In this document: positions 1-21,368 of the stretch, piece by piece
Layout: the number at the start of each line of letters is the position of its first letter
How positions within the stretch are numbered: position 1 is the stretch's first letter
Source of the DNA: Burkholderiaceae bacterium
GTDB taxonomy: Bacteria; Pseudomonadota; Gammaproteobacteria; Burkholderiales; Burkholderiaceae_C
Assembly (NCBI GenBank): GCA_035539635.1
Contig: DATLIE010000368.1
Span: 7,669-71,668, forward strand
DNA: 64,000 bases
Direction: 5' to 3'
The notes under the pieces: model-generated
Seen by the model: the letters and a program-made list of their open reading frames with translations, nothing else
Told to the model about the DNA's origin: nothing
Database searches by the model: none
Program-made: the position numbers and the translations under genes

Positions 1-531
1 CATCTGCATCATCGGCGTCGGCAGCACGCCCAGGGCCAGCAGCGCCAGCGCTGCCGAGCCCGCCAAGCCATGCAGCATCCCGACCAGCATGCTTGCCGCC
101 GGCAGCCGATGGGCATGGCGATGCGGATCGCTCGCGTGGAGGCGCTTGGGCTCGGTCGCAGCGCGCGGGGTGTGCGAGTGCCCGTGAAAGTGCGGCGCTC
201 GGCCAGCATGGCCATGGCCGTGAAAGTGCATGCGCTCCTTGTACAAGCGCCATGCCAGCCGCGCGCCGAGCACGATCAGCAGCACACCGACGGCCTGCTC
301 GAAGCGCAGGGCCCATTGCGACGGAATCACCCAGCCGAGGCCAGCCACTGCAGCAGCCACGACGAGCAGCACCAGCGAGTGGCCCAAGCCCCAGGCGGCG
401 CCCAGACGCAGCGCGCGCGCCAAAGAGTGCTCGCGCGTGGCCAGCGTCGCAACGGCGGCCAGATGGTCGGCATCGGTGGCGTGCTGCATTCCCAGCAGCA
501 ACCCCACCCCGAAAATCATGAGGATGTCCAT
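1..531 (-). CDS. Nickel/cobalt transporter (NiCoT/UreH-like), partial; C-terminus lies beyond the left edge
   Basis: Own translation from the ATG at 529-531: MDILMIFGVGLLLGMQHATDADHLAAV... It carries the HX4DH metal-transporter signature, a His-rich loop (HFHGHGHAGRAPHFHGHSH...HRHAH) and a later MLHGLAGSAA segment. It is missing from the ORF track because it runs off the window. It sits 7 nt downstream of hypB. Confidence 0.7.
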   Translation of the reverse strand, partial: MDILMIFGVGLLLGMQHATDADHLAAVATLATREHSLARALRLGAAWGLGHSLVLLVVAAAVAGLGWVIPSQWALRFEQAVGVLLIVLGARLAWRLYKERMHFHGHGHAGRAPHFHGHSHTPRAATEPKRLHASDPHRHAHRLPAASMLVGMLHGLAGSAALALLALGVLPTPMMQM

Positions 532-538
532 GGCGGAC

Positions 539-1482
<944 letters not shown>

Positions 1483-1492
<10 letters not shown>

Positions 1493-1830
1493 GTTTCCAC
1501 CTCCATCGCCTTGACGTTTAGTTCCTGGCCGGTGCGCCGACGCCAGCGGGTCGCGCCACAGTGGGCGCAAGCCGCGGGCATGGCCTCGCCGTCCGCACAT
1601 TCGGGCGTGCCACAGTCCTCGCAGAGCCAGCCTGGCGAGACCTCGACGATCTCGAGTTCGGCCGCCTCGAGCGCCGTCCCCTGCCGCACGACGCCGAAGC
1701 AGAAGCGCACCGAGTCCGGCAGCAGGGCCGTCTGCGTGCCGATCTCGAGCCACACCTTGCGCACCGGCCGGCCTTGTGCGGCCTCGGCGACGATGGCTAC
1801 GAGGTTGCGCGTGATGCCAAGTTCGTGCAT
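1483..1830 (-). CDS. hypA: Hydrogenase nickel insertion protein HypA
   Basis: MHELGITRNLV... N-terminus and two CxxC pairs (CEDCG, CAHCG). About 115 aa. 10-nt overlap with the hypB start. Confidence 0.9.
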
Positions 1831-1847
1831 GGGCCGGTCCCGGCGGA

Positions 1848-2903
1848 TCAGCAGATGCGCGGCAATTGGTCGCCGTGCAACAGATCGACCACGCGCTCGC
1901 CGCCGAAGGCCGAGCGCAGCGTCACCAGGCCGGCATGCCCGTTCGCCAGCACCTCGCCCACCACGGCGGCGTGGCGGCCCAGCGGATGCGAGCGCATCGC
2001 CGCAAGGACCGCGTCGCAGTCCTGCGGCGCCACCAGCGCCGCCAGCTTGCCCTCGTTCGCAAGATATAGCGGATCGAGCCCCAGCATCTCGCAGGCGCCG
2101 CGCACCACGTCGGCCACCGGCAGTGCGGACTCTTCCAGGCGCAGGGGCATGTGGCTTTCGGCGGCGAACTCGTTGGCCACTGTCGCCAGGCCGCCGCGCG
2201 TGCAATCGCGCAGCCAGCGCAGGCGCGGCGCGGCGGCGAACATGGCTTCGATCAGCCCGTTCAGCGGCGCACAGTCGCTTTGCACGGGAATCTGCAGCGC
2301 CATGTCGTCGCGCGCGGCCAGCACGGCCACGCCGTGGTCGCCGAGGGTGCCGTTGACGATCAGCCGGTCACCAGGCCGCACCTCGCGCGCGCCGGTCTGG
2401 CGCCCCGCGGCAATGGTGCCGATGCCCGCGGTGTTGATGAACAGCCCGTCGGCGGCTCCGCGTTCAACGACCTTGGTGTCGCCGGTGACGATGACCACGC
2501 CCGCCTCGCGCGCGCTGCGCGCCATGCTGTGCAACACCTTGCGCAGGGTGTCGAAGGGCAGGCCTTCTTCCAGGATCAGGCCGCAGCTGAGCCAGCGTGG
2601 GGTGGCGCCGCCGACGGCCAGATCGTTGACCGTGCCGCAGACGGCGAGCGTGCCGATGTCGCCGCCAGGGAACTCCAGCGGCGAGACCACGTAGCTGTCG
2701 GTCGTGAACGCCAGCGAAGCGCCCGTCGGAATCTCGCTGTAGGGAAAGCGTGCCTGGTCTTCCAGCGGCGCCAGCCAGCCATTGTCGAAGACCGGTGCGA
2801 TGAGCCCTGCGACCAGCTCGCGCATCGCGCGTCCGCCAGCACCGTGCGCGAGCGTCACGCGCTTGCCGGTCCAGGCGTCCTTGGGCGTGGGGGTCGGCGT
2901 CAT
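1848..2903 (-). CDS. hypE: Hydrogenase maturation protein HypE (carbamoyl dehydratase)
   Basis: 351 aa, AIR-synthase-like fold signature, C-terminal ...GDQLPRIC (HypE PRIC motif). Its ATG overlaps the hypD stop (ATGA). Confidence 0.95.
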   Translation of the reverse strand: MTPTPTPKDAWTGKRVTLAHGAGGRAMRELVAGLIAPVFDNGWLAPLEDQARFPYSEIPTGASLAFTTDSYVVSPLEFPGGDIGTLAVCGTVNDLAVGGATPRWLSCGLILEEGLPFDTLRKVLHSMARSAREAGVVIVTGDTKVVERGAADGLFINTAGIGTIAAGRQTGAREVRPGDRLIVNGTLGDHGVAVLAARDDMALQIPVQSDCAPLNGLIEAMFAAAPRLRWLRDCTRGGLATVANEFAAESHMPLRLEESALPVADVVRGACEMLGLDPLYLANEGKLAALVAPQDCDAVLAAMRSHPLGRHAAVVGEVLANGHAGLVTLRSAFGGERVVDLLHGDQLPRIC

Positions 2904-4039
2904 GCCGCTACCCCGATCGGGATCACCGGTTCACGGCGCGCGAACTGGTAGTAGGCCGCGCAAGCCCCTTCGCTGCTGACCATCAGCGCGCCGAGCGGCG
3001 TCTGCGGCGTGCAGGCGGTGCCGAACACCTTGCACTGCGGCGGCTTGATCGCCCCCTTCAGCACCTCGCCGCACTGGCAGCTCTTCGGGTCGGCAATGCG
3101 CGCGCCGGGAACAGAAAAGCGGCGCTCGGCGTCGTAGGCCGCGTAGGCCTCGCGCACCCGCACGCCCGAGTGGTCGATCGAGCCCAGGCCGCGCCACTCG
3201 AAGAACTCGCGTAGCTCGAAGACCTCGGTGATCGCCTCAAGCCCCGCTGCGTTGCCGCCCGGGTCGACGAGGCGCGCGTACTGGTTCTCGACCGCGGCGC
3301 GGCCCTGCTCGAGCTGGCGCAGCACCATCAGCAGGCTTTGCAGGATGTCGGTCGGCTCGAAGCCCGAGATCACGAGCGGCCGACCGTACTCGACGGCGAT
3401 GAACTCGAAGGGCGCCGTTCCCGAGACCATCGCCACATGGCCGGGACCGAGGAAGCCGTCGATCGTCATACCCGGCGAGTCGAGGATGGCTTTGATCGTC
3501 GGCACGATCGTGATGTGGTTGCAGAACAGCGAGAAGTTGTCGATGCCGCGCCGCTTCGCCTCGAGCACCGTCATCGCGGTGGAGGGCATGGTGGTCTCGA
3601 AGCCGAGTGCGAAGAACACCACGTCGCGGCTCGGGTTCGCCGCCGCGATTTCGAGCGCGTCCAGTGGCGAATAAACCATGCGCACATCGGCGCCGTCGGC
3701 GCGCGCCTGCAGCAGCGAGCCCTTGGAGCCGGGCACGCGCATCGCGTCGCCAAAGGTCGTGAAGATGACACCGGGCTGATTCGCGATCGCCACGCAGTCG
3801 TCCACGCGGCCCATCGGCAGCACGCACACGGGGCAGCCCGGGCCATGCACGAACTCGAGCGCGGGCGGGATCAGGTCCTTCAGCGCATAACGAAAGATCG
3901 AGTGGGTGTGGCCGCCGCACACCTCCATGATCTGCAGCGGGCGTTCACGGCTCGCGCCCAGGCGCACGGTCGCGCCGGCAATTTCGCGCAGCAACGCGCG
4001 CGCGGCCAGCGGATCGCGGAATTCATCGACGTACTTCAT
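2900..4039 (-). CDS. hypD: Hydrogenase maturation protein HypD
   Basis: Starts MKYVDEFRDP; contains MEVCGGHTHSI and GPGCPVCV. About 379 aa. The longer ORF in the track is upstream read-through. Confidence 0.95.
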   Translation of the reverse strand: MKYVDEFRDPLAARALLREIAGATVRLGASRERPLQIMEVCGGHTHSIFRYALKDLIPPALEFVHGPGCPVCVLPMGRVDDCVAIANQPGVIFTTFGDAMRVPGSKGSLLQARADGADVRMVYSPLDALEIAAANPSRDVVFFALGFETTMPSTAMTVLEAKRRGIDNFSLFCNHITIVPTIKAILDSPGMTIDGFLGPGHVAMVSGTAPFEFIAVEYGRPLVISGFEPTDILQSLLMVLRQLEQGRAAVENQYARLVDPGGNAAGLEAITEVFELREFFEWRGLGSIDHSGVRVREAYAAYDAERRFSVPGARIADPKSCQCGEVLKGAIKPPQCKVFGTACTPQTPLGALMVSSEGACAAYYQFARREPVIPIGVAA

Positions 4040-4773
4040 GGGGTTCTTCCTTTCGGGGCCGACGCGCGCGCCGGCCGGTCGTCGGCCAGCAGGCTGTGCA
4101 CGAGGTCCCACAGCACGTGGTAGATCGCCACATGCGTCTCCTGGATGCGGTGGATGCTGTCGCTGTCCACGAGCAGGGTCAGATCGACGCTCGCCGAGCG
4201 CGCCATCGCGCCGCCATCGCCACCAGCCAGCGCCAGCGTGCTGGCTTGCAGTTCGTGCGCGGCCTCGAGACCGCGCAGCACATTGCGCGAGTTGCCGCTG
4301 GTGGACACGCCCAGCACCATGTCGCCGGCCCTCACCAGACCCGGCATCTGGCGCGCGAACACCTCGTCGAAGCCGACGTCGTTGCCGACGGCGGTCAGCA
4401 TGGCCATGTCCTGCGCCAGGTTGTGCGCCGGCAGCGCGGGGCGCCCGGCGGTCACGGGATGCTGGAACTCGACGGCGACATGCGCGGCGTCGCAGCTGGA
4501 GCCGCCGTTGCCCATGGTGTACAGGCGCCCGCCGCGACGAAAGACCTCGGCCATTAGCTGGGCCGCACGCAGCACATCGTTGCCGTGAGCATCGAAGAAT
4601 CGCGTCTTCACAGCCACGCTGTCTCGCCACTTGGCGACCATCGCTTCGCGCAGCGCCGCTTCGAGGCGCAGTGCGTCGCGTGCGTCGTGCGCCGCGTCGC
4701 CCATGGTCGCCGCGCGAGGCGCCAGATGGGGGTACAGGGCGCCGAGTGCCGCCTTGTCCTTCGATGCGTTCAC
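4036..4773 (-). CDS. SIS-domain protein (GmhA/DiaA-like sugar isomerase fold) embedded in the hyp operon
   Basis: GGRLYTMGNGGSSCDAAHVAVEF... and VLGVSTSGNSRNV are typical SIS motifs. The GTG start at 4771-4773 overlaps the hypC stop (GTGA); an alternative ATG lies at 4702-4704. Its stop overlaps the hypD start. Confidence 0.7.
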   Translation of the reverse strand: MNASKDKAALGALYPHLAPRAATMGDAAHDARDALRLEAALREAMVAKWRDSVAVKTRFFDAHGNDVLRAAQLMAEVFRRGGRLYTMGNGGSSCDAAHVAVEFQHPVTAGRPALPAHNLAQDMAMLTAVGNDVGFDEVFARQMPGLVRAGDMVLGVSTSGNSRNVLRGLEAAHELQASTLALAGGDGGAMARSASVDLTLLVDSDSIHRIQETHVAIYHVLWDLVHSLLADDRPARASAPKGRTP

Positions 4774-5051
4774 ACCACGGCCCGCGTCTTGTAGCTCTCG
4801 AGTTCGGCCTGCGCGTCGCCGAGTTCCTTGAGCAGTTGCAGCGTCAGCATCGCCTCGCGCTCGTCGACGCGGTTCATCGCGAAGCCCACGTGGACCAGCA
4901 CCCAGGCGCCGATGCACTCCTCGAGTGGCTCGCCTTCGCGAACGATGCAGGCGATGTTGATCTCGCGCTTGACGCCGAGCACATCCACCAAAGCGAGCTT
5001 GGCTTCGGGGCGCGTGATGGCCTCGATACGGCCCGGGATGCCTAGACACAT
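4770..5051 (-). CDS. hypC: Hydrogenase assembly chaperone HypC
   Basis: MCLGIPGRIEAI... N-terminus, 93 aa. Its start overlaps the hypF stop by 10 nt. Confidence 0.9.
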   Translation of the reverse strand: MCLGIPGRIEAITRPEAKLALVDVLGVKREINIACIVREGEPLEECIGAWVLVHVGFAMNRVDEREAMLTLQLLKELGDAQAELESYKTRAVV

Positions 5052-7471
5052 GGGGGCGTCTCCTGTCGTTGTTCGTTCTGGCTGGCGCGGGCCAGCGCAA
5101 TCAGCGCCTGGCCCCAGGCCAGCCCGCCGTCGTTCACCGGCACCTGGCGCGGCAGCAGGGCCTTCAGGCCCGCCGCCTCGAGCCCGCGCAGGACGAGCTC
5201 GGTGAGCACCTTGTTCTGGAACACGCCGCCGCCCAGGGCGACGGTTGTCAGCTCGTGACGTTCGGCCTCTTGCTGCGCCATGCGCACGATGACCGCTGCC
5301 AGCCCGCGGTGAAAGCGTGCAGCGATGCGGGCCGCGGGTGTGGCGAGAATCAGATCGCCGAGCAGGGCCTGCCACATGCCCAGCGGCTCGACATAGGGCA
5401 GGCCCTTGCCCTTGTCCAGGCGAGGGATCGCGAACGGGTAGTCGAGTTCGGCGCTCTCGTCGAGGTCTTGCGCGGTGACCAGCGACTCCAGGCGCATCGC
5501 CGCCTCGCCTTCGTAGGCCACCTGCTCGCGGCAGACGCCGATTGCGGCCGCCACCGCATCGAACAGGCGCCCGACGCTGCTGGCGCGTGGCGCCAGGGCC
5601 GGGTTGGCGAGCATCGCATCGAGCATCTCGCGCGGCTTGGCGCTCAGAAAGTGGTGCAGCTCCAACTCGTCGTAGTTGCTGGTGAAGCGCGGCCAACCCA
5701 TCTCGGCCATCAACTGCGCATAGGTGTTGCGCCAGGGCTCGCGTGCCGCCAGGTCGCCGCCCGGCAGGCACACCGGTTTGAAGGTGCCCACGCGTTGCGC
5801 CTGCCGGTAATCGGCGAGCAGGAACTCGCCGCCCCAGAAGCTGCCGTCCTCGCCCATGCCGATGCCGTCGAGCGCGATGCCGAGCACCTTGCCGCCGTGC
5901 AGCGGCCACCCGTGTTCGCCCAGGCACGCGGCGATGTGCGCATGGTGGTGACCGACGCCGACCTGTCGGTCGGGCCAGCGCTCCTGCGCGTGCTGCGTCG
6001 AGGCATAACCCGGGTGCAGATCGCAGGCAACGAGATCGGGCTCGAAGGCGTAGAACGCGAGGTAGTCGGCCAGCGCGCGCCGCTGGTCGGCCAAGCAGGC
6101 GGCGTCGTGCAGGTCGCCGATGTGCTGCGAGAGCACGCCTTGCCCGTCGCGCACCAGCGCGAAGGTATTCTTCAGGTCACCGCCGAGCGCCAGCACCTTG
6201 GTGCGGTGGTCGAAGCCCTTGGGCAGCGGCAGCGGCGCCGGGGCATAGCCACGCGCGCGCCGCATCACCCGCAAGGCACCGCCGACGACGCGCCCGACCG
6301 AGTCGTCCACCCGCCGCTGGATCGCACGGTCGTGGTCGAGCACCCACGCGATGGAGGGGCCCAGGCGGGCCGCAGCATCGTCCAGCCGGATCGCCTGCGG
6401 CTCTTCGCTCAGGTTGCCACTGGTCAGCACGATCGGCGCCTTGCGGCGCCGCATCAGCAGCAGGTGCAGCGCGGTGTTCGGCAGCATCACGCCGAGCGTG
6501 GGCAGGCCGGGTGCGACGCCGTCGGCCAGCGGTGCATCGGCGCGCCGCGGCAGCAGCACGATCGGCGCTGCCGGGCTGGCGAGCGCGGCTTCGGCCACGT
6601 CGTCGCTCAGGCACCACTGGCGCGCCATTTCGATGTCACGCACCAGCAACGCGAAGGGCTTGCCTTCGCGGCGCTTGAGTGCTCGCAACCGCGCTACCGC
6701 GTCGGCGCGTGTCGCGTCGCAAGCGATCTGGTAGCCGCCCAGGCCCTTGACCAGCACCAACTCGCCGCGGCCCAGCAACGAAGTGGCGCCATCCGCGTCG
6801 TCGAGCGCGGTCAAGGCCTCCAGGCTAAAGGGCTTGCCGTCGATCCGGCGCAACGTGGCGCGCGGGCCGCAGGCGTGGCAGGCCATTGCCTGGGCGTGGA
6901 AGCGCCGGTCGTCGGTGTCGGCGTACTCGCGCGCGCAGGCCGCGCACAGCGGGAAGGGCGCCATCGTCGTGTGCGCGCGGTCGTAGGGGGCGCGTTCGAA
7001 CACGCTGAGGCGCGGGCCGCAGGCGGTGCACGCGGTGAACGCATAGCGATAGCGGCGCGCGAAAGGATCCAGCGTCTCGGCGCAACACGCCGGGCAGATG
7101 GCCCAGTCGGGCGCCACGCCGAGGCCCGGCTGCGCCAGCGCGCTGTCGGCGATCGAGAACGTCGAAGGCAGCGCCGCCGGCACGGCGAGCGGCTGCGCGA
7201 GCAGTGCATCGATACGGGTGCCGCCGTGGTCGAGCGTGCGCAGGCGTTGCTCGAACTCGGCGAGCGCCGGCTCCGGGCCAAAGGCTTCGACGATGGCCAT
7301 CGTGCCTTCGTTGTGAACGCTGCCCACCACGCCGAGCGCGCGCGCCAGGCGCAGCGCCTGCGGTCGGAAGCCGACCCCCTGAACGATGCCGCGCACCTTC
7401 AAGCGTGCGCCGTACATCGGCGCCCCATGTGGTCGATCGGTCAGCGCTGTGGTCGTGGGCACAGCGCTCAT
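5042..7471 (-). CDS. hypF: Carbamoyltransferase HypF
   Basis: Acylphosphatase-like N-terminus (VRGIVQGVGFRP), two CxxC-x18-CxxC zinc fingers, and YrdC- and Kae1-like regions. The ATG overlaps the stop of the NHL gene (ATGA). Confidence 0.95.
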   Translation of the reverse strand: MSAVPTTTALTDRPHGAPMYGARLKVRGIVQGVGFRPQALRLARALGVVGSVHNEGTMAIVEAFGPEPALAEFEQRLRTLDHGGTRIDALLAQPLAVPAALPSTFSIADSALAQPGLGVAPDWAICPACCAETLDPFARRYRYAFTACTACGPRLSVFERAPYDRAHTTMAPFPLCAACAREYADTDDRRFHAQAMACHACGPRATLRRIDGKPFSLEALTALDDADGATSLLGRGELVLVKGLGGYQIACDATRADAVARLRALKRREGKPFALLVRDIEMARQWCLSDDVAEAALASPAAPIVLLPRRADAPLADGVAPGLPTLGVMLPNTALHLLLMRRRKAPIVLTSGNLSEEPQAIRLDDAAARLGPSIAWVLDHDRAIQRRVDDSVGRVVGGALRVMRRARGYAPAPLPLPKGFDHRTKVLALGGDLKNTFALVRDGQGVLSQHIGDLHDAACLADQRRALADYLAFYAFEPDLVACDLHPGYASTQHAQERWPDRQVGVGHHHAHIAACLGEHGWPLHGGKVLGIALDGIGMGEDGSFWGGEFLLADYRQAQRVGTFKPVCLPGGDLAAREPWRNTYAQLMAEMGWPRFTSNYDELELHHFLSAKPREMLDAMLANPALAPRASSVGRLFDAVAAAIGVCREQVAYEGEAAMRLESLVTAQDLDESAELDYPFAIPRLDKGKGLPYVEPLGMWQALLGDLILATPAARIAARFHRGLAAVIVRMAQQEAERHELTTVALGGGVFQNKVLTELVLRGLEAAGLKALLPRQVPVNDGGLAWGQALIALARASQNEQRQETPPCV

Positions 7472-8649
7472 CACGCGACGTCCCACAACAGGACGCGGTT
7501 GTTGCCTGAGTCGACGATGATCGCGGTGTTGCCTTGAATCGCGATGGCATACGGCCAGCACAGCGAGTCTCGGGTTGCCGCCTGCCAGCGGTTGTCGCCC
7601 TTGTCGACAAAACTGGCCTGCCCGGCCACCGCGCGCGCCTCGCGCTCGGCAGGCGCGTCCAAGCGCAGCACGCGCGAGTTGGCGGTATCGGCGACGAAGA
7701 GCCGGTCTTCATGCACCGCCAGGCCGTAAGGCATGTTCAGGCTGCGGGCGCTGGGAAAGTATTCGCCACGGTTGTGATCCAGCGCGTCGATCTCGCCCTG
7801 ACCAATGATGAGGTCGCTGCGCGCCATGTCGCTGTCCGGGTCGCCGAGCCACAGCAGCAGGCGGTTGTTGCCGGCATCGGCCACGCACAGATAGCCCTGC
7901 CACAGCGCCAGCGCATGCGGCCAGCGCATCGTGGCTTGCGTCACACCACCAGCGTTCTCGTCGCGGTGCACGAAGTCCGGCTGGCCGAGCACGAGGTTGG
8001 CGGGCTGCCCGTCACGCGCCGGCAGGCCGTCGAAGCGCAGCACGCGGCGGTTGCCGGTGTCGGCCACCCACAGGCGCGCACCGTCCCAGAACACGCCATA
8101 CGGCCAGTGCAGGGTGTCGGCCGCAGGCGTGTCGAGCCCGCGGTTGGCCAGCCCGGCGTGCGCATCGGCCTGGCCCAGCACCACGTCGGCCGGCTGCCGG
8201 CTGTGCCGCGGCGCGCGGCGCCAGATCAGCACGCGGTGGTTCCACGCGTCGGCGACCGCAAGGCCCTCGCCGCAGGCACACACGCCGGTGGGCACATTCA
8301 AGCTCGCGCCGCTGACCTCGGCATGCGCATTGCGGCCTTCGTGGTCGAAGCCGGGCTGTCCGATCACCCACGAAGCCGGTTCGCCGTCGCTGGTCGGCAC
8401 CGCCGGCCAGCCCAGCAGCCGGTGGTGACCCGTGTCGGCGACCCACAAGGCGCCGTCGGCGGTCACCGCGGCGCCGCGCGGTCCGAACAGGGTGTTCGCG
8501 GCCGGCGTCAGGGCCGCGCCGGACAGCGGGTCGTGCAGGCCGAGGATGACTCGCGCGCCGGCCGCGGCAAGCGCCGGCGCGGCGGCTGCGCGCTCGCGCG
8601 GCCGCGCGAGCGACACCTTGAGCGGCGCGGCAGCCAAGGTGCCGCTCAC
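7471..8649 (-). CDS. NHL-repeat beta-propeller protein (six blades)
   Basis: Six repeats of the type hWVADTGNxRVLxW (ALWVADTGHHRLLGW, LAVADAWNHRVLIW, LWVADTGNRRVLRF, LCVADAGNNRLLLW, LFVADTANSRVLRL, AIIVDSGNNRVLLW). The GTG start overlaps the upstream stop (GTGA). Confidence 0.8.
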   Translation of the reverse strand: MSGTLAAAPLKVSLARPRERAAAAPALAAAGARVILGLHDPLSGAALTPAANTLFGPRGAAVTADGALWVADTGHHRLLGWPAVPTSDGEPASWVIGQPGFDHEGRNAHAEVSGASLNVPTGVCACGEGLAVADAWNHRVLIWRRAPRHSRQPADVVLGQADAHAGLANRGLDTPAADTLHWPYGVFWDGARLWVADTGNRRVLRFDGLPARDGQPANLVLGQPDFVHRDENAGGVTQATMRWPHALALWQGYLCVADAGNNRLLLWLGDPDSDMARSDLIIGQGEIDALDHNRGEYFPSARSLNMPYGLAVHEDRLFVADTANSRVLRLDAPAEREARAVAGQASFVDKGDNRWQAATRDSLCWPYAIAIQGNTAIIVDSGNNRVLLWDVA

Positions 8650-9530
8650 GTCGGCGCTCCCAGCTTCACCGCGACGCGTCCGCCGCGCACGCGAACGGCG
8701 TGAACCACCAACTGCACCTCGGGCACGTCGAGGCATTCGCCGGTGTCCAGGCGGTAGCGGAAGCCGTGATGCGGGCACTCGATCACGCCATCACTGACGG
8801 CGCCGTCGTCCAGTGGCATGCCGAGGTGCGCGCAGGCGTTGGCCACGCAGAACACCTGCGAGCCGTCGCGGTACAGCAGCAAGGCCTCATCGCGCAGCGA
8901 ACGCGCCGCCACCTGGCCTTGCGGCAGTTCGTCCACGGCGCAAAGATCGACGAAGCCAAGATCCTCCGCCTTGGCGAAGGGGCTGACGAAGTGGATCGGC
9001 ACCGCTTCGCCGGGCGCCCGCGTTTCAGCCGAGCGCCGCACCTGGACGACTCGGACGATCTCCGGCGCGTGCTCCTTGATCGCACGCTCCACGCCTTCGG
9101 ACAGCGTCTGGCCCGATGCCGGACAGCTTTGGCAGCTGCCGGTCAAGCGCACCTCGACGGTGTCGGGCAGCTTGATCGCCACCAGCTCCACGCCGCCGGC
9201 ATGCTCAGCCAGCATCGGCGCCACCGATTCCAGCGCCGCGCGGACCCGCGCCTCGAGCGGCTCGCGCACCAGGCCATGCAGCCGCAGGACGCCATAGATG
9301 AACGGGTCCGACGCCAGCTCGCGCAGCCGGGCCGCGGCAGCCGGCTCTTCGCGCAGCCCTTTGAGCAGGCGCACGAGCGCCTCGCGGTGCAGGGCCTCGA
9401 TGGCGCCACGCAGGTTGTCGAGCACGGCGCGCTGCTCCAACGGCCAGGCCTGGCCGATGGCCTGAAGCGCCGCCACCTCGGTGGCCATGTGGGCCAGCCG
9501 CTCGCCGTCGTCGTGGGTCGCCGCGTTCAC
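8646..9530 (-). CDS. NifU-like domain fused to a Rieske-type [2Fe-2S] domain
   Basis: The central LTGSCQSCPASGQTL is the CxxC of the Nfu/NifU C-terminal type. The C-terminal CAHLGMPL-x-CPHHGFRY is the Rieske pattern CxH...CxxH. The start is uncertain: GTG at 9530 or ATG at 9488. Confidence 0.8.
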   Translation of the reverse strand: MNAATHDDGERLAHMATEVAALQAIGQAWPLEQRAVLDNLRGAIEALHREALVRLLKGLREEPAAAARLRELASDPFIYGVLRLHGLVREPLEARVRAALESVAPMLAEHAGGVELVAIKLPDTVEVRLTGSCQSCPASGQTLSEGVERAIKEHAPEIVRVVQVRRSAETRAPGEAVPIHFVSPFAKAEDLGFVDLCAVDELPQGQVAARSLRDEALLLYRDGSQVFCVANACAHLGMPLDDGAVSDGVIECPHHGFRYRLDTGECLDVPEVQLVVHAVRVRGGRVAVKLGAPT

Positions 9531-9550
9531 AGAGCTGCGCCTCGGGTTCG

Positions 9551-9769
9551 TCAGTTGTACTTGAGGTTGCGGAACAGCCACGGCATCAGCGCGCCGCCGA
9601 TGGCGCCACCGGCCACCATGCCGAGCCACGGGTTCACCCAGCCGAGCGCGAGCATCAGCAGTAGTGACACGGCAAAGCCGGCGCCGAGCTGGCGGAAGAA
9701 CGCCCAGTTGTCGCGGAACAGCTTGCCGCCGACGAACAGCTTGATCGAGTTGAGCAACATATCGAACAT
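9551..9769 (-). CDS. Small membrane protein (72 aa), unknown family
   Basis: AAGGAG lies 5 nt upstream of the ATG. The central segment is hydrophobic (FAVSLLLMLALGWVNPWLGMVAGGAIGGALMPWLF). Co-directional within the operon. Confidence 0.5.
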   Translation of the reverse strand: MFDMLLNSIKLFVGGKLFRDNWAFFRQLGAGFAVSLLLMLALGWVNPWLGMVAGGAIGGALMPWLFRNLKYN

Positions 9770-9788
9770 CGTTTGCTCCTTGCCGCGT

Positions 9789-9980
9789 TCAGCGCAAAGC
9801 GTGCATCAGCACGGCCACCACCGCGGCGGGGACCACTGCGGCGAGGCCGAAGAAGGCGCCCATGAAGGCGGCCATCTCGTTGCCCATCGCCTGGCCGCCG
9901 AGCTTCACCCCGGTTGCGGCGCCGCCTGCCGCGCCCGCCAGCACGGCGGCCAAGCACATCAATACGAGGGTCACAGTCAT
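9789..9980 (-). CDS. Small Gly/Ala-rich membrane protein (about 63 aa), unknown family
   Basis: MTVTLVLMCLAAVLAGAAGG...FFGLAAVVPAAVVAVLM. GGAG lies about 8 nt upstream of this internal ATG. The track ORF begins earlier, at 10040. Confidence 0.45.
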   Translation of the reverse strand: MTVTLVLMCLAAVLAGAAGGAATGVKLGGQAMGNEMAAFMGAFFGLAAVVPAAVVAVLMHALR

Positions 9981-10036
9981 CGTCTGCTCCATGTTGATCA
10001 ACGGTTCAATTGGTGGTCCTGAAGCCCGAGTTCTGG

Positions 10037-11095
10037 TCAATGCCCGGTGGGCCCGGCATCGCCGGGAACGCGTGAGGCGCCGAAGTCGGCGTGCGAGGCA
10101 TCGATGCCGGCGAGCGCGTCGGCCACTGTGGCCGCAGCATCGTCAAGGCCCGCGGACTGAAAGATTCGTTGCGCCTCCCGATACAACGCACGCGCCTTCG
10201 CGGTGTTGCCTGGGTTGCCCAGCTCGGGGTGCTCCGGGTCGTCCGGCAGGTTGAGCAGGGCATTGGCCTTGTTGGCCGCCGTGTTGGCGTACTCCACCGG
10301 CATGTCGCGCGGGTTGCGCACCTTCAAGGCCTCGTCATACGCCTCCACTGCACGCAGGAGGTTGGCCACCGGATGGCTGCTCGGAGCGTATTGCAGCGCA
10401 TTGCCGAGGTTGTTCTGCGTCATCGCGTACTCGCTGGGGTGGTCCACCAGCGTCACGATGCCAAGCACCTCCTCGAACGACTGCACGGCGAGCGCCTCGC
10501 GCATTCGCGCACGTTCGTCGGTGGCGGGGATCGAGAGGTAGGCGATCGCCAGGTTGTTGTGCAGGATCGAGAACTCGCGTGGCCAGGCTTGTTTGGTGAA
10601 CACGCGCAGGGCGCGGTGGTAGTGCGCGATCGCCTCCTGGATCGTCGCCCGGTGAGCAGCGCAAAGAGTCTGGGTCACCAGGCCCAGGTTCATGTCGAGT
10701 TCGGCCACCTCTTCGGCCAGGCCATGGGTGGCCAGGTCGGCGCGAGCGGCCTCGAAACAGTCGCGTGCCGATTCGAGTGCGGCGGTACCGCCATCGGGCA
10801 AGGTCTGGTAGGCGGTGCCCTGGCGGGCACGAATGCGTGCCGCCAGCAGCGCGAACGTGGGTGGCACCAGCGCCAGTGCACGCTCGTACAGCGCTACCGC
10901 GTCGTGCAACTGGCGCGGCGAGCGCGGCTTGATCTGCAGACCGCGGGCGATCTCCATCAGCATCTCGGCCCGTTCCTCGGGTGCGGCGTCGCCCTCCTCG
11001 GCCAAAGCCAGCGCCGATTGCACCTCGGCGTCGGCCACCGTGAAGTGGTCTCGACCATTCGGCCTGCCCGACTCAGGCCCCGTGCTTGTCTCCAT
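10037..11095 (-). CDS. TPR-like helical-repeat protein, first gene of the hyp operon
   Basis: Repeated A-x-x-x-Y-x-x-AL helical-pair pattern (AVALYERALAL, AIAHYHRALRV, AVEAYDEALKV, ARALYREAQRI). AAGGA precedes the ATG at 11093-11095. Confidence 0.65.
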   Translation of the reverse strand: METSTGPESGRPNGRDHFTVADAEVQSALALAEEGDAAPEERAEMLMEIARGLQIKPRSPRQLHDAVALYERALALVPPTFALLAARIRARQGTAYQTLPDGGTAALESARDCFEAARADLATHGLAEEVAELDMNLGLVTQTLCAAHRATIQEAIAHYHRALRVFTKQAWPREFSILHNNLAIAYLSIPATDERARMREALAVQSFEEVLGIVTLVDHPSEYAMTQNNLGNALQYAPSSHPVANLLRAVEAYDEALKVRNPRDMPVEYANTAANKANALLNLPDDPEHPELGNPGNTAKARALYREAQRIFQSAGLDDAAATVADALAGIDASHADFGASRVPGDAGPTGH

Positions 11096-11198
11096 CTTTG
11101 TCCTTGCTGGGCCGTGGGGCCCGTGGCTGGGATCTTCTTGCGAACTACCCCGAGAGCATCGGCGACGGGCTCGAGAACGTCTACTAGGTGCGCACCTA

Positions 11199-12010
11199 AT
11201 GAAAACCAAGTTTGCTACTCAGTCCGCTGGCTCGTTCGTTGGCGCATCGCGCGGTGCGGGCCAACTTGATTGGCGCTCAACCCCCGGTGACGGGGCCGAC
11301 CGGGGCCGTGCATTGCCTCAAAACCCAGACTGAAACGAGGACTTGCGAGCCTCTCATCGCTGCTTGCCTGAGTGGCGATCGCGGTTGGCATGAAGCGTGA
11401 CTAAGAGGTGAAGACCCATCCACGCCATCCTGGGCACCTGGGGTCAAGACCAGGAGACATTCGCATGGAGTCGTTCTACGAGGTGATGCGCCGCCAGGCT
11501 GCCACTCGCTGGCCAGCGTGCGCGCGGTCGAGGACGTGCCGGGCATCAAGATCCCGAAGAACGCGCACCTGATCCACGAGACGATGGCCATGACGCTGCA
11601 GGTGCACGACCACGCGGTGCACTTCTAGCACCTGCACGCGCTGGACTGGGTCGACGTCGTCAACGCGCTGAAGGTCGATCCCAAGAAGTCAAGCGACCTG
11701 CAGCACCTGCTGTCGCCTTCGCATTCGATGTCCAGCCCCGGCTACTCCCGCGATACCCAGAACCGGCTCAAGAAGTTCTTCGACTCCGGTCAGCTCGGTC
11801 CTATCACTGGGGCAGCAAATCCTGTGCGCTGCCGCCCGGGCCAAGCTGGTGGCGGCGACGCATTACCTCGAGGCACCGGACCTACAGAAGGAGTGGGTCA
11901 AGATACACACCATCTTCGGCGGCAAGAACTCGCAACCCAACTACCTGGTGAGCGGCGTGCCTTGCGCGATCAACGGCATGGGGTCGTGGGCCGAAAAGCT
12001 GTTCGGCTAG
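11199..12010 (+). pseudogene. [NiFe]-hydrogenase large subunit (HoxG/HupL/HyaB-like) remnant covering only about the N-terminal 40%
   Basis: Own three-frame reading gives MKTKFATQ..., [52 protein letters not shown] with TAG at 11626-11628 where Tyr is expected. It continues [23 protein letters not shown]. After a frameshift it reads [45 protein letters not shown]. There are several frame changes. No C-terminal half and no small-subunit gene upstream. Confidence 0.85.
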
Positions 12011-12040
12011 GTGACTCCGCTGCACGGCCAGTCGCAGGAC

Positions 12041-12182
12041 GGGCACACCTTCCACCACTCGGCATGTGGGTGCTGATCGGGTTCGTGATCTTCCACGTCT
12101 ACGCCGCGATCCGCGAAGACATCATGGACCGCCAGATCATCTCAGCACGATCATCTCCGGCCGCCGCACGTTCAAGGACTGA
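12041..12182 (+). pseudogene. Hydrogenase cytochrome b subunit (HoxZ/HupC-like) C-terminal remnant
   Basis: [26 protein letters not shown] followed, after a frameshift, by [12 protein letters not shown]. This matches my recollection of HupC/HoxZ C-termini. Nothing of the first ~200 codons remains. Confidence 0.7.
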
Positions 12183-12239
12183 CGCGATGACGCTGCGCGC
12201 CCGCCTCACCATTGGCAGCCATGCCCGGGGGCAGCGGTG

Positions 12240-12579
12240 AACCGCAGCACCAGCCAACTGCAGCAGGCGCTGATGAACCTGGTCCAGAACGCCTACGACG
12301 CGGCTGCCGGCCCGGGCCGGGAGCAGCCGCAGTTGTGGATCGAGGTGCGGATCGAAGGCGCGTCGCTGATCGTCGCGCTGCGCGAACGGGCCAGGGACTC
12401 CGGCGCCGGACCTGGCGCGCATCTTCGACCCCTTCTTCACCACCACCGGTCGACAAGGGCACGGGTTCGGACTGTCGATTAGCTACGGCATCGTCGAGCA
12501 GCATGGCGGCGGGCTCGTCGCGGGCGCCGCGCCGGGCGGCGGCGCAGTCTTCGCAATCACGCTGCCTCTGGCTTCCTGA
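12240..12579 (+). pseudogene. Histidine kinase HATPase_c tail (possibly HoxJ/HupT-like), frameshifted and lacking the DHp/H-box
   Basis: N-box LQQALMNLVQNAYDAA and a degraded G1 region (RDSGAGP). After a frameshift: [48 protein letters not shown]. Confidence 0.75.
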
Positions 12580-12671
12580 GTGTCCCCGCTACGCAGTGTC
12601 AGCCGCGCCACCGCTTCCTGCGGCTCAAGGTGCGGCAGTTGCGTCGGCCGAAGCGTTGTCGCTCCAAAACT

Positions 12672-13955
12672 CTACAACTTCCAGAGTCGGCACCACCATT
12701 GCGGCTCGACCGGGACCGGCAGCTCGGGCAGGTCGCACCACTTCCGGTGCGGCAGGTAGTAGATGCACTCGGCGCAACGCTGTTCGACGCCACCCATCTC
12801 AACTGGCCGCGGCGCAAAGCCGCCGATGTCCAGGCGTCCCATGAGATCCTCTTCCGGAAGATCCGCGAGGCGGTCGAGAATGGCTTGGAACTCGACCTGA
12901 TTGGCCGGGAACGGCGACATCTGAGTCGCCATTCCCGAGGCCAGCAGTTCCCCGATGCGCATGCGCAGCAGGTTCAGCGCAACGCGATCCATCGCCGTCC
13001 AATCCAGTGCCGGGTTGCCGCGCGGGGGCTTGACGACCATCAGCACTTCGCGTTCGTCGAACGGTATGCGCAGGGCAGGGTAATACGGCACACGCAGAAG
13101 ATAGACCTCTCGACGCCCGATCTGCATTCGTGCCTTGCCGATGGCGCCCGGTTCGAGCCCGTACTGTTCAGCGATCGGTGCCAACGCCAGCCGGCCTTCG
13201 AAGGTCGCCGAGATTGCGCCCGCGAGCAAGGCCGATCGCGGCGCGGCGATGCCGCATCCGGCGCGCCGGTAGCTGGCGGCATGCGATTGCGCGCTCAGGT
13301 CGAACAGATCCGCGGCCAGGATCCGCTCGTCGATGTCGCAGGAAGCATGCAACAAGCTCGAAGAGCCTTCGGGCGCGCCTTGTGGTTGAGTCACTTTGCC
13401 GCCCGCGGGCTCGTGAGCGTGTGAATGCCCATGCCACGCCGCGATCAGCTTGCTCCAGAGGGACATGCTGTGCTGAGCGGGCTGCGGCCTGTTTGGATTC
13501 GTGCTCGCGCGGGTCTTGCGAACGCTCTGCAGGCGCGTGTGCACACCCCGGGCATGGACGATCGAGTCCAGCGCTGCGACGGACGCCGGAGCGTGGCGCA
13601 CGACAAGGCACAGGGCTTCCGTCGAGCCGGGCAGCCGGCTCAGTACAAGGTCGTGCTGTGGCAGCAGCAGCGACGCCGAGGTGACTCCACCGTTGGCGTC
13701 GCACTCAGCCGCGATCCGGCCGACTTCGGCGCCGATGCTGCGACCGAGCAGCGCGCGAGCAAGCATCGGCAGCAGGCTGGCATCGATGCCGAGGGCCTGA
13801 CCGGAAGCCTTTGGCGAGTCGCCGAGGGTCAGCGCCCGGCCGGTGCTGAGGTTGACCAGTGCCACCATGCCCTGGCCTTCGGTTCCGGCGATCAGCGGTG
13901 CAAGCTCCCGAGCGAGTTCGCGGCGGGGTGGAACAACACCAGCGGGAACGTTCAT
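12672..13955 (-). CDS. Hypothetical 427-aa protein with a C-terminal HiPIP-like four-cysteine signature
   Basis: GAAGGA lies about 7 nt upstream of the ATG at 13953-13955. The C-terminus is RCAECIYYLPHRKWCDLPELPVPVEPQWWCRLWKL. There is a His-rich linker (WHGHSHAHE). The N-terminal ~150 aa vaguely resemble Roadblock/LC7. No signal peptide. Confidence 0.5.
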   Translation of the reverse strand: MNVPAGVVPPRRELARELAPLIAGTEGQGMVALVNLSTGRALTLGDSPKASGQALGIDASLLPMLARALLGRSIGAEVGRIAAECDANGGVTSASLLLPQHDLVLSRLPGSTEALCLVVRHAPASVAALDSIVHARGVHTRLQSVRKTRASTNPNRPQPAQHSMSLWSKLIAAWHGHSHAHEPAGGKVTQPQGAPEGSSSLLHASCDIDERILAADLFDLSAQSHAASYRRAGCGIAAPRSALLAGAISATFEGRLALAPIAEQYGLEPGAIGKARMQIGRREVYLLRVPYYPALRIPFDEREVLMVVKPPRGNPALDWTAMDRVALNLLRMRIGELLASGMATQMSPFPANQVEFQAILDRLADLPEEDLMGRLDIGGFAPRPVEMGGVEQRCAECIYYLPHRKWCDLPELPVPVEPQWWCRLWKL

Positions 13956-20177: not shown

Positions 20178-21368
20178 TCACTGCGCGCGCTTCGCGAGGA
20201 TCTCGAAGGCCGGCAGCGTCTTGCCTTCGAGCACCTCGAGGAAGGCGCCGCCGCCGGTGGAGATGTAGCCCACGTCCTTCTCGATGCCGTACTTGGCGAT
20301 CGCGGCCAGGGTGTCGCCGCCGCCGGCAATCGAGAACGCATCACTTGCTGCGATCGCGCGCGCAATCGTTTCGGTGCCATTCGCGAACGCATCGAACTCG
20401 AACACGCCCACCGGGCCGTTCCAGACGATGGTGCCGGCGGCCTTGAGCTGGTCGGCGAGCAGCGCCGCGGTCTTGGGGCCGATGTCGAGGATCAGGTCGT
20501 CGGGAGCCACGTCGGTGGCCGCCTTGACGGTCGCCTTCGCGTCGGCCTTGAACTCCTTGGCACACACCAAGTCGACCGGGATCGGCACCGCGGCGCCGCG
20601 CGCGGCCATCGCCTCGATCACGGCCTTGGCCTCCTTGACGAGGTCGGGCTCGGCCAGGCTCTTGCCGATGGGCAACCCTTGCGCGAGCAGGAAAGTGTTG
20701 GCGATGCCGCCGCCGACCACCAAACCGTCGACCTTGGCCGCCAAGCTCTGCAGGATCGTCAGCTTGGTGCTGACCTTGGAGCCAGCGACGATGGCCACCA
20801 GCGGCCGCTTCGGGTGCGCGAGCGCCTTCGTGATCGCATCGATCTCGGCCGCCAGCAGCGGGCCGGCACAGGCGATCTTGGCGAACTGCGCGATGCCGTA
20901 GGTGCTGGCCTCGGCGCGGTGCGCGGTGCCGAAGGCGTCGTGCACGAAGATGTCGGTCAGCGCCGCCATCTTCTTCGCCAATTCCTCGTTGTTCTTCTTC
21001 TCGCCCTTGTTGAGGCGGCAGTTCTCCAGCAGCACCACCTCGCCGGGCTGAACGGCCACGCCATCGACCCAGTTCGACCGAAGCGGCACGGGGCAGCCGA
21101 GCAATTCGCTCAACCGAGCGGCCACCGGCGCCAGAGAGTCCTCGGGCTTGAACTCGCCTTCGGTCGGACGTCCGAGGTGCGAAGTGACCATCACCGCCGC
21201 GCCGGCGTCGAGCGCCATGCGGATGCAGGGCACCGAGGCGCGGATGCGCGTGTCCTCGGTGATGTGCCCGGCGTCGTCCTGCGGCACGTTGAGGTCGGCA
21301 CGGATGAAGACGCGCTGGCCGCGCACGCGGCCCTGCGCAACGAGATCGGAGAAGCGGAGGACGTTCAT
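20178..21368 (-). CDS. pgk: Phosphoglycerate kinase
   Basis: [17 protein letters not shown], and GGGDTLAAI near the C-terminus. Confidence 0.95.

Follow-up and report, generated by a model that had tools for sequence, protein, structure and literature searches.

The window, the whole 64,000-nucleotide stretch of DNA analysed here, carries at positions 11465-12579 (+ strand) the collinear relics of a group-1d membrane-bound [NiFe]-hydrogenase (MBH) cluster, reduced to ~1.1 kb. They lie beside an intact hyp operon with its accessory genes, and the features of the region are as follows.

1..531, − strand: 5′ part of a NicO nickel transporter gene, cut at the window edge (gene calls of contigs L055 and L056)
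539..7471, − strand: intact hypF-hypC-SIS-hypD-hypE-hypA-hypB operon (tblastn, L055 gene calls, dN/dS), comprising
539-1492, − strand: hypB
1483-1830, − strand: hypA
1848-2903, − strand: hypE
2900-4039, − strand: hypD
4036-4773, − strand: SIS
4770-5051, − strand: hypC
5042-7471, − strand: hypF
7471..8649, − strand: NHL-repeat accessory gene (Pfam NHL, E=5.8e-26)
8646..9530, − strand: HucE-type NifU-Rieske iron-sulfur protein gene, a group 2a accessory gene (Pfam NifU and Rieske)
10037..11095, − strand: TPR-like accessory gene of the Huc-type cluster, intact (synteny; dN/dS 0.065)
11096..11464, no strand: intergenic region from the divergent TPR-like gene to the hoxK stub, ~75% identical to relatives at 92% identity
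11465..11497, + strand: 5′ stub of hoxK (MBH small subunit), ATG and 10 codons (blastn, alignment)
11497..11974, + strand: relic of hoxG (MBH large subunit), codons ~80-242 of ~618 (tblastn, PDB match, codon-level alignment)
11978..12182, + strand: relic of hoxZ (cytochrome b), codons ~177-244 (tblastn, blastn, alignment)
12187..12199, + strand: start of hoxM (maturation endopeptidase), ATG and ~3 codons, a short stretch assigned by position and alignment alone
12210..12579, + strand: relic of hoxJ (H2-sensing histidine kinase), approximately codons 315-440 (tblastn, blastn, alignment)
12672..13955, − strand: 427-aa ORF on the right flank; homology to the 92%-identity relatives resumes at 12678

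The surviving MBH pieces are hoxK codons 1-11, hoxG codons 80-242, hoxZ codons ~177-244, the first ~4 codons of hoxM and hoxJ codons ~315-440, and all five retain the canonical hoxK/G/Z/M/J order and orientation. When pHG1 proteins were used as tblastn queries, matches to HoxG, HoxZ and HoxJ appeared in canonical order inside 1.1 kb. At the nucleotide level the relics are 68.5-91% identical to the MBH clusters of Variovorax, Acidovorax and Cupriavidus, in which the gene order is hoxKGZM...hypABFCDE(X) hoxABCJ. Three deletions of ~1.3, ~2.4 and ~16.7 kb join the pieces, in which two codons have turned into stops and four or more small indels shift the reading frame; ~95% of the cluster is gone, and every surviving piece is disrupted. 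The catalytic nickel ligands, the FeS-cluster domain and the cytochrome b except its last ~68 residues are absent, as is the kinase N-terminal region normally carrying the phospho-accepting histidine, and no working protein is possible from any of the five relics. A sequence-only reading of the window had described a graveyard of a membrane-bound-type [NiFe]-hydrogenase, which is borne out by these matches to group-1d HoxK/G/Z/M/J; the peptide strings it quoted were all found in the three plus-strand frames, and the similarity searches by tblastn, blastn and phmmer gave matches far above chance.

The hoxK stub is preceded by a Shine-Dalgarno sequence (AGGAGA, 11452-11457) and fused straight to hoxG codon 79/80. 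At this first deletion junction, the G residues at 11497-11498 are common to the stub and hoxG codon 79, giving a 2-nt microhomology. The stub matched the Variovorax cluster (L002, 13638-13671, 91%) and the Acidovorax cluster (L063, 18612-18663, 86.5%) in blastn. The HoxK Tat motif (SRRSFLK) and the whole mature protein, including the Cys ligands of the FeS clusters, are deleted, and a 35-aa ORF begins at the native hoxK ATG. The small subunit had been reported as entirely absent, but its Shine-Dalgarno sequence and first 11 codons (11465-11497) survive; likewise, the start of the TPR-like gene had been placed about 100 nt away, but it lies at 11095, 370 nt from the hoxK ATG. Positions 11199-11464 showed no similarity to hydrogenase genes. 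Upstream of the stub we observed neither a sigma-54 or sigma-70 consensus (with at most 1 mismatch) nor a sigma-70-like site, and an Rfam scan of 10900-12800 gave no match.

In the hoxG relic, tblastn with HoxG of C. necator pHG1 matched residues 80-182 at 11497-11805 (73%) and residues 204-248 at 11858-11986 (82%), with E=3.7e-59. The first 101 residues of the relic matched 3RGW_L (HoxG) in a phmmer search of PDB (E=4.8e-46), and group-1d enzymes (3RGW, 3AYX, Hyd-1) outscored all other groups. Blastn over 489 nt gave 80.4% identity to the Variovorax gene (E=2e-123) and 78.6% to the Acidovorax gene (E=9e-110). By similarity, the relic is thus that of a group 1d O2-tolerant large subunit (HoxG/HyaB, PF00374). 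It runs from Gly79-Cys-His, past the CGVC pair, to about codon 242, with ~163 of 618 codons remaining in place of an uninterrupted frame of ~600 codons; both Cys pairs of the N-terminal RxCGxCxxxH and C-terminal DPCxxCxxH NiFe ligand motifs are deleted. It bears three lesions: TAC has become TAG at 11626-11628, 10 nt are missing between 11805 and 11806, and a single nt is missing at ~11838. The TAG had been reported in place of a Tyr, and it indeed replaces the TAC of HFYHLH. The reported loss of the C-terminal Ni-binding Cys pair is also correct, but the relic ends at about codon 242-248 rather than 265, and the earlier description is corrected in that the first 79 codons, including the RxCGxC nickel ligands, are missing as well. 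A protein homologue search with the 102-aa HoxG fragment returned short fragment ORFs only, with no closer functional orthologue for dating.

The hoxZ relic follows the hoxG relic after no more than ~3 nt and comprises only the last ~68 codons of a HoxZ/HyaC frame that is ~244 codons long, with a haem-binding membrane domain, when complete. It matched in three frames by tblastn (E=4e-17) and showed 81% and 76% blastn identity to the Variovorax and Acidovorax genes, respectively. A TGG-to-TAG change at 12008-12010 and 1-nt deletions at ~12058 and ~12141 disrupt it, and the native TGA stop is kept at 12180-12182. A frameshifted cytochrome b tail had been noted here and is present, although it spans ~68 rather than 45 codons and lies ~3 nt rather than 30 nt from the hoxG relic. 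The alignment with the Variovorax cluster continues across the hoxZ stop into the start of hoxM, which stands at native spacing behind that stop and forms the left edge of the ~16.7-kb deletion. The hoxJ relic retains part of the ATP-binding domain, with several indels, in two reading frames, and keeps a TGA at the native position (12577-12579); of the complete HoxJ/HupT kinase (~447 codons), the input region and the phospho-accepting His domain are missing. Residues 315-414 of pHG1 HoxJ matched by tblastn (E=4e-11 and 7e-10), and the Acidovorax hoxJ matched by blastn (73.5% over 279 nt, E=2.6e-37). The hoxM start (12187-12199) and the ~120 hoxJ codons (~12210-12579) had been overlooked in the sequence-only reading.

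The neighbouring hyp operon has another affiliation. Its gene order is not the MBH-type hypABFCDE, and tblastn with the pHG1 hypF3C2-SIS-D2E2A3B3 products gave one HSP each at 46-73% identity. The NifU and Rieske domain pair encoded at 8646-9530 has been described for HucE (PMC6883350). The TPR-like gene had no Pfam or NCBIfam match; its orthologues in distant relatives directly follow the genes for a group-2 small subunit, large subunit and protease. At about 20 distant loci, synteny links group-2 structural genes with those for TPR, NifU-Rieske, NHL and hypFC-SIS-DEAB. The canonical order in distant relatives of the TPR-like gene begins with a sigma-54 regulator and continues with the group-2 small subunit, the large subunit, the protease, TPR, NifU-Rieske, NHL and hypFC-SIS-DEAB. 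In contigs that match the window almost exactly, the NicO gene is followed by genes for a sigma-54 activator and a HAD-family protein and by the intact genes of a Huc-like small and large subunit. These structural genes lie ~4-7 kb beyond the left edge of the window and were seen in two contigs only (L055 and L056, 99.7-99.9% identical to the window). Their products, a small subunit of 320 aa and a large subunit of 532 aa, find their best PDB match in M. smegmatis Huc (E=1.5e-156 and 1.6e-193), and they have intact RACGICGASH and DSCLVCTVH nickel motifs and no Tat signal; the enzyme encoded outside the window is thus of group 2a, being closest to Huc, cytosolic and intact in its nickel motifs. 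Group 1h had been suspected as the owner of the hyp operon on account of the hypF3C2-SIS-D2E2A3B3 likeness, NifU and NHL, and was rejected as the structural genes match Huc far better than HofG/HofK.

The hyp genes (hypA, hypE, hypD, SIS, hypC and hypF) and the accessory genes showed dN/dS of 0.04-0.16 at dS of ~0.16-0.28; hypB was left out, its value being unusable owing to a His-rich repeat. Taken together, these results indicate that the hyp operon never belonged to the MBH and is the hyp set of the Huc-type (group 2a) cluster. It evidently serves the maturation of a cytosolic Huc-like uptake hydrogenase, and the need to mature this different enzyme explains why it has stayed intact under purifying selection. 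One of two explanations offered earlier, the retention of hyp genes for another enzyme, therefore proved right. Elsewhere in the 64-kb window, tblastn with the pHG1 group 1d, 1h, 2b and 3d subunits found nothing but the relic, and Pfam scans of the ORFs from ~7.5 to 48.8 kb found housekeeping genes only; a second hydrogenase inside the window was rejected on these grounds. Judged from these 64 kb, the genome presumably contains no other MBH copy. The locus was judged to be chromosomal from its housekeeping neighbours fmt, def, dprA, secD, yajC and glnE.

The other explanation offered, a recent loss, found no support in the constraint on the relic or in the state of its relatives. Among 138 hoxG sites invariant in three functional orthologues, 25 are changed in the relic, compared with 5-7 in leave-one-out controls, an approximately fourfold excess of replacement. 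On the window branch, hoxG showed dN of ~0.12 and dS of ~0.125, giving an omega of ~1 (158 codons; dS is partly saturated). In the near-identical contigs, the density of SNP sites was ~3.1 times higher in the relic region than in flanking genes (8/1402 nt against 18/9843 nt; Fisher p=0.011). Selective constraint is thus relaxed relative to the functional orthologues, and the evolution of the hoxG relic appears roughly neutral; the loss of the MBH is therefore not recent. In addition, relatives at ~92-92.5% identity (L005, L007, L008 and L009) have already decayed differently at the syntenic locus. They have both flanks and the hoxK start in common with the window, and they keep hoxK codons ~44-90, which are absent from the window, and none of hoxG, hoxZ or hoxJ. 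Since the window and these relatives keep different pieces of hoxK, their common ancestor had the operon here and its decay went on separately in each lineage. Another relative, L010, has no relic at the locus; it carries unrelated housekeeping genes there (DUF3422, PEP carboxylase, MobA-like) and was for this reason rejected as an intermediate decay state.

We considered whether the lesions and junctions could be errors or chimeric joins in a genome that really has an intact MBH operon. The source is apparently metagenomic, and in some of the related MAGs built from long reads (L012, L017) even hyp genes are broken as if by frameshifts, which would favour such an artefact. However, five metagenome contigs (ENA ERZ27256788, JGI 3300015615, JGI 3300028590, Logan SRR30013117 and Logan SRR34292206) that were assembled independently and match the window at 99.6-99.95% identity share every lesion that falls within their span. 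Three of them (L055-L057) span the whole relic, one (L058) reaches 12128 and one (L059) 11621. Within the relic, SNPs are their only differences from the window; indels are absent, and neither stop codon is touched by a SNP. The lesions are therefore not sequencing errors. This agreement across different samples and assemblers, the flanking genes that are intact in the same contigs, and the fact that errors would not delete ~20 kb at three places make an artefact extremely improbable.

Improbable too, if somewhat less so, is that a working MBH was never present and that pieces of a foreign cluster were integrated by illegitimate recombination and are now decaying. The closest matches, in Cupriavidus, Variovorax and Acidovorax, are indeed plasmid-borne MBH clusters, and the locus is prone to rearrangement, given the other genes in L010, a junction repeat in L006 and a recombinase at the far end of L055. 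Scattered pieces, however, would hardly show the exact canonical order and orientation of all five relics, nor the native boundaries kept at the hoxZ stop-hoxM start and at the hoxJ stop. The ancestor held at least hoxK codons 1-90 and all the pieces of the window, most simply the whole cluster, and with GC3 values of 0.74-0.86 in hoxG and ~0.75-0.8 in the other parts the relic roughly resembles its host, although intact genes have higher values (0.83-0.95). Finally, the hoxK promoter, leader and stub, or a relic RNA, might have been co-opted, as a regulator of the divergent Huc accessory/hyp genes or as a 35-aa chimeric peptide. The window and the L005 lineage both keep the Shine-Dalgarno sequence, the ATG and the first 11-13 hoxK codons, their breakpoints lying only 3-5 nt from each other, and the 35-aa ORF does start at the native ATG. 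Yet L010 has no stub and its cluster is intact, the intergenic region with the stub is only ~75% identical between lineages against 92-95% for neighbouring genes, and the searches for sigma-70/sigma-54 consensus and Rfam families were negative; we regard such a residual function as very improbable indeed.

The locus at 11465-12579 is thus very probably the non-functional relic of a complete group-1d MBH cluster, hoxKGZM...hyp...hoxABCJ, of ~21 kb. Its homology to functional genes and its disabling lesions, reproduced in five independent contigs, make it an ordinary pseudogene relic, the product of ordinary gene decay and unusually well documented. The ancestral cluster was presumably complete and functional in this lineage, and would have sat between the Huc-type accessory/hyp cluster and the 427-aa gene. 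MBH function, or the need for it, may have been lost first, and the cluster would then have collapsed by deletion-biased neutral decay. In this scheme, three large deletions would have removed ~20 kb: one from hoxK codon 12 to hoxG codon 79 (~1.33 kb, at the 2-nt GG microhomology), one spanning hoxG codon 243 through hoxZ codon 176 (~2.36 kb, with its ends fused directly), and one from hoxM codon ~5 to hoxJ codon ~315 (~16.7 kb), whose lost content would, judged solely by the canonical order in other genera, be that of the hoxM-hoxJ interval. The remainder would then have acquired two nonsense mutations and four or more small indels that shift the frame, this order of events being the presumed one.

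The left breakpoints in hoxK lie only 3-5 nt apart in the window and L005 (after codon 11/12 and after codon 13, respectively), and this near identity is not explained by fully independent deletions. A tentative and rather unlikely possibility is that the first inactivating lesion, loss of the Tat signal region of the small subunit, preceded the split of the window and L005 lineages, that its junction then served as a hotspot for the next, larger deletion, and that the locus, with the Huc-type enzyme retained, records a dated MBH-to-Huc switch in a Hydrogenophaga-like clade. If so, the clade would have switched from sensor-regulated growth on high H2 (MBH and HoxJ) to Huc-only scavenging of trace H2.

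The closest known counterpart of the relic is the MBH cluster of C. necator H16 pHG1 (hoxKGZMLOQRTV-hypA1B1F1CDEX-hoxABCJ), with equivalents on a Variovorax paradoxus plasmid (NZ_CP138516.1) and Acidovorax temperans pEP1. The relics share with pHG1-type clusters their order, orientation and boundaries, at amino acid identities of 70-82% for HoxG/HoxZ and 40-64% for HoxJ; those clusters are plasmid-borne, whereas the relic locus is chromosomal and lacks ~95%. The Huc-like subunits find their best solved-structure match, over the full length, in M. smegmatis Huc, a high-affinity uptake hydrogenase of group 2a (PDB 7UTD, 7UUS, 7UUR), with which the cluster also shares the HucE NifU-Rieske domain pair, although the host here is a betaproteobacterium (Hydrogenophaga-like). 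In Rubrivivax, Rhizobacter and Hyphomicrobium the structural genes stand directly before the protease and TPR genes, whereas here they have moved to the other side of the hyp operon and are convergent.

Bacterial pseudogenes reportedly decay with a deletional bias, as Mira, Ochman and Moran are said to have described in 2001. The relic resembles such decay in several respects: its multiple deletions show hardly any microhomology or none, its small lesions in length are deletions only (-10, -1, -1, -1), it carries nonsense mutations and an excess of replacement at conserved sites, and sister lineages keep different relics. The mechanism is the same, and what is unusual is the clearly preserved five-gene collinear skeleton of a 21-kb operon. 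The relic brings no new mechanism or gene family; it is a clean multi-lineage case of a large accessory operon erased from a bacterial chromosome. For annotation and inference from MAGs, the PF00374 fragment ORFs that gene callers produce here should not lead to this organism being scored as a group-1d carrier, and its hyp operon should not be taken to imply an MBH. Taken together, our results suggest that the low-affinity, O2-tolerant MBH and its H2-sensing kinase, in this copy at least, have disappeared from this Hydrogenophaga-related lineage, and that a Huc-type enzyme with a full maturation set has been conserved.

We searched the window with the membrane-bound [NiFe]-hydrogenase (MBH) proteins of Cupriavidus necator pHG1 by tblastn, and the HoxG and HoxZ matches were far from marginal; the hydrogenase peptides quoted in the sequence-only reading were likewise all present in the three plus-strand frames of 11100-12700. 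HoxG residues 80-182 matched 11497-11805 with 73% identity and residues 204-248 matched 11858-11986 with 82% (E = 3.7e-59 for both segments together), HoxZ residues 177-244 matched 11978-12179 in three frames, and HoxJ residues 315-414, absent from that reading, matched 12210-12504 in two frames. When the first 101 residues were compared with PDB by phmmer, the HoxG chain 3RGW_L was matched with E = 4.8e-46, and group-1d enzymes outranked every other group. The best plasmid-borne DNA match was Variovorax paradoxus hoxG (80.4% over 489 nt, E = 2e-123), and hoxG of Acidovorax temperans (78.6%) was also among the best.

The relic was mapped by codon-by-codon alignment to the Variovorax, Acidovorax and pHG1 clusters, all three of which have the gene order hoxK-hoxG-(hupE)-hoxZ-hoxM...hypABFCDE(X)-hoxA-hoxB-hoxC-hoxJ.

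Remaining MBH gene pieces in the window
11465-11497 (+): hoxK relic, ATG and 10 codons left, truncated after codon 11
11497-11974 (+): hoxG relic, codons 80-242 left
11978-12182 (+): hoxZ relic, codons ~177-244 left, native TGA retained
12187-12199 (+): hoxM relic, ATG and ~3 codons at native spacing, truncated
~12210-12579 (+): hoxJ relic, ~codons 315-440 left, several indels

The Shine-Dalgarno sequence of hoxK (AGGAGA, 11452-11457) is still present, and the hoxJ relic ends with a TGA at the native position (12577-12579). The hoxG relic carries a TAC-to-TAG change at 11626-11628, a 10-nt deletion between 11805 and 11806 and a 1-nt deletion at ~11838, and the hoxZ relic carries a TGG-to-TAG change at 12008-12010 and 1-nt deletions at ~12058 and ~12141. 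As measured on the reference clusters, three deletions removed ~20 kb of the original ~21 kb. One (~1.33 kb) took out hoxK codon 12 through hoxG codon 79, and its junction, CAGG|CTGCC, shows a GG microhomology of 2 nt. Another (~2.36 kb) fused hoxG directly to hoxZ by loss of hoxG codon 243 through hoxZ codon 176, and the largest (~16.7 kb) extends from hoxM codon ~5 as far as hoxJ codon ~315. This map revises the sequence-only reading in several respects. The small subunit, described as entirely gone, survives as its start codon and 10 more codons; the large subunit has indeed lost its C-terminal side, but also 79 codons at its N-terminus, among them those of the first nickel-binding Cys pair. 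The cytochrome b stub, put at ~45 codons and ~30 nt away, has ~68 codons and abuts the hoxG relic, and the right end, placed at 12182, lies ~400 nt further on, so that hoxM and hoxJ are included. On the left, 11199-11464 is plain intergenic DNA, and the TPR-like gene starts at 11095, 370 nt from the hoxK ATG rather than ~100 nt.

Sequencing or assembly error could in principle produce such lesions. Near-identical contigs were retrieved by exact-protein look-ups from five separate assemblies or samples (ENA ERZ27256788, JGI 3300015615, JGI 3300028590, Logan SRR30013117 and Logan SRR34292206), with 99.6-99.95% identity to the window. Three of the five cover the relic in full, and the other two extend to 12128 and 11621; within the covered parts all differ from the window by SNPs only, with no indel and both stop codons unaltered, and an artefact is therefore effectively excluded. 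Elsewhere, in pgk (20208-20916), the ENA contig shows 68 differences in ~700 nt, compared with 6 in the preceding 12 kb, to be explained either by a recombination tract or by strain mixing at the contig end.

A scan of the TPR-like protein against GTDB species representatives returned 50 loci. Those of four Hydrogenophaga-like MAGs (L005, L007, L008 and L009) are identical to one another here and ~92.5% identical to the window. Their left-flank homology reaches the junction at hoxK codon 11/12 (window position 11498), and the right-flank homology starts again at 12678; between the flanks, hoxK codons 1-13 are joined to frameshifted codons ~44-90, followed by ~360 nt without assignment, and hoxG, hoxZ and hoxJ were not found there. 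In a further relative with a closed 3.23-Mb chromosome (L010), homology ends at 11250 and unrelated genes (DUF3422, PEP carboxylase) occupy the relic position. The window lineage and the four-MAG lineage each retain pieces missing from the other, and therefore their common ancestor must have held at least all of these, in order. Most simply, the complete MBH cluster was present at this site in that ancestor, and the large deletions arose separately within each lineage. The left hoxK breakpoints, after codon 11/12 in the window lineage (11495-11500) and after codon 13 in the relatives (L005 ~9594-9600), lie only 3-5 nt apart, which may represent a shared ancestral lesion with a reused junction, a hotspot or coincidence.

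Some further observations were made around this locus. The four MAGs and L014 are byte-identical over locus positions 8601-10000 though assigned to separate GTDB species or taxa (Burkholderiales, two Hydrogenophaga, Pseudomonadota and Curvibacter), which suggests cross-binning or one widespread strain; a closely similar locus, L006, is labelled Lysobacteraceae. Right after its hoxK relic (1-300, reverse strand), L006 carries an ~80-nt sequence (GGGGATAGGAAATCCAACCGCATGAGCACAAGTATGGCACACG...) twice at the contig start, which may be an IS/MITE element end or an assembly artefact. In the window, a 427-aa ORF (12672-13955, minus strand) with a C-terminal Cys-rich motif (CAECIYYLPHRKWCDL...WWCRLWKL) gave no Pfam or NCBIfam match, and its conservation in the 92%-identity relatives is limited to the last ~330 nt. 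Five PF00374 ORFs of <180 aa on long contigs of other assemblies (up to 581 kb), P0038, P0045, P0062, P0107 and P0113, are frameshift-terminated and similar to the same HoxG region; they represent either further relics of large-subunit genes or indel errors of long reads.

In hoxG, 25 of 138 codons whose amino acid is invariant in three functional orthologues are altered in the window, compared with 5-7 per functional orthologue in leave-one-out controls; in hoxZ, 9 of 50 are altered, against 4-6 in the controls. Three-taxon branch lengths from pairwise values gave dN ~0.12 and dS ~0.125 for the window branch, and omega is thus close to 1, a rough estimate from 158 codons with between-genera dS partly saturated. 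The near-identical contigs vary at 8 sites in the 1402 nt of the relic region (11199-12600) and at 18 sites in the 9843 nt of genes from 1258 to 11100, a ~3.1-fold higher density in the relic region (Fisher p=0.011). At ~0.12, the relic's neutral branch length is similar to half of the pairwise dS between the window and its relatives (~0.2), indicating that inactivation is about as old as the lineage split, contrary to recent loss, one of the two alternatives raised from the sequence.

The relic region is without function. Neither a sigma-70 or sigma-54 consensus nor an Rfam family was found in or upstream of it, and the ORFs on its minus strand are artefacts of the kind common in high-GC DNA. 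Co-option of the hoxK stub is disfavoured, as the stub is missing from L010 and its region is only ~75% conserved between lineages. Acquisition of already fragmented foreign MBH DNA is also disfavoured: canonical gene order and native gene boundaries are kept, and the relatives carry a complementary relic. Housekeeping neighbours (cydAB, fba, pgk, fmt, def, dprA, secD, yajC and glnE) place the wider window on the chromosome. The relic is most probably what neutral, deletion-biased decay has left of an operon no longer needed, beside a cluster still needed.

That neighbouring cluster runs on the minus strand from 7471 to 539 as hypF-hypC-SIS-hypD-hypE-hypA-hypB, an order different from the MBH-type hypABFCDE, and its proteins are 46-73% identical to pHG1 hypF3C2-SIS-D2E2A3B3. 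Upstream on the same strand are an NHL-repeat gene, a NifU-Rieske gene, two small ORFs and the TPR-like gene; the NifU and Rieske domain pair has been described for HucE (PMC6883350), an accessory protein of the group 2a uptake hydrogenase Huc. One of the two small ORFs, located between the genes for the TPR-like and HucE-like proteins (9789-9980, minus strand; 63 aa), weakly matched NCBIfam asr0689 (E=2.3e-8, below cutoff). We take asr0689 to be a small protein linked to cyanobacterial hup/hyp clusters, and such an ORF would be consistent with a group 2a cluster. In ~20 more distantly related loci (Rhizobacter, Rubrivivax, Hyphomicrobium, Myxococcota), genes for a sigma-54 regulator, group-2 small and large subunits and a protease stand immediately before the same accessory/hyp block. 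Two of the near-identical contigs (L055 and L056) extend beyond the window's left edge; on them, hypB and nicO are followed by genes for a sigma-54 activator and a HAD-family protein. Convergent to these lie the genes for the small (320 aa) and large (532 aa) subunits, together with two small ORFs, a HycI-type protease gene and another small ORF.

Huc-like structural block, ~4-7 kb beyond window position 1
L055 15502-19646
L056 15514-19610

Among solved structures, M. smegmatis Huc was the best match, at full length, for both the large (E=1.6e-193) and the small subunit (E=1.5e-156), the next best families giving E ~1e-60 or weaker. The RACGICGASH and DSCLVCTVH motifs of the large subunit are intact, and no Tat signal was found in the small subunit; read from the genes, this is an intact Huc-type (group 2a) hydrogenase. 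Since the same block directly precedes the TPR-like gene in other genera, whereas here it lies past the hypB-nicO side, it has been relocated or inverted in the window's lineage. Its outer flank holds a serine recombinase in L055 and DUF1016/YhcG in L056. When the window is compared with L005 or L010, dN/dS is 0.04-0.16 for the hyp and accessory genes other than hypB, and their only stop codons are the terminal ones. Low dN/dS and intact Huc-type genes therefore indicate that the hyp operon is intact because it serves the Huc-type hydrogenase; retention for another enzyme, already raised by the sequence-only reading, is borne out by hyp type, nearby structural genes and constraint alike. The hypB His-rich stretch (~1257-1277) is repeat-prone and length-variable: of the eight metagenome contigs retrieved, six terminate no more than 20 nt from it, and L056 has a 12-nt insertion there.

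The relic is a new instance of a well-known phenomenon and not an element of a new kind. The short PF00374 ORFs (36 and 53 aa) that gene callers output here call for caution in MAG-based metabolic calls. The locus provides a tidy, datable record: here, a Hydrogenophaga-like lineage lost the MBH and H2-sensor genes of this site and retained a Huc-type enzyme.
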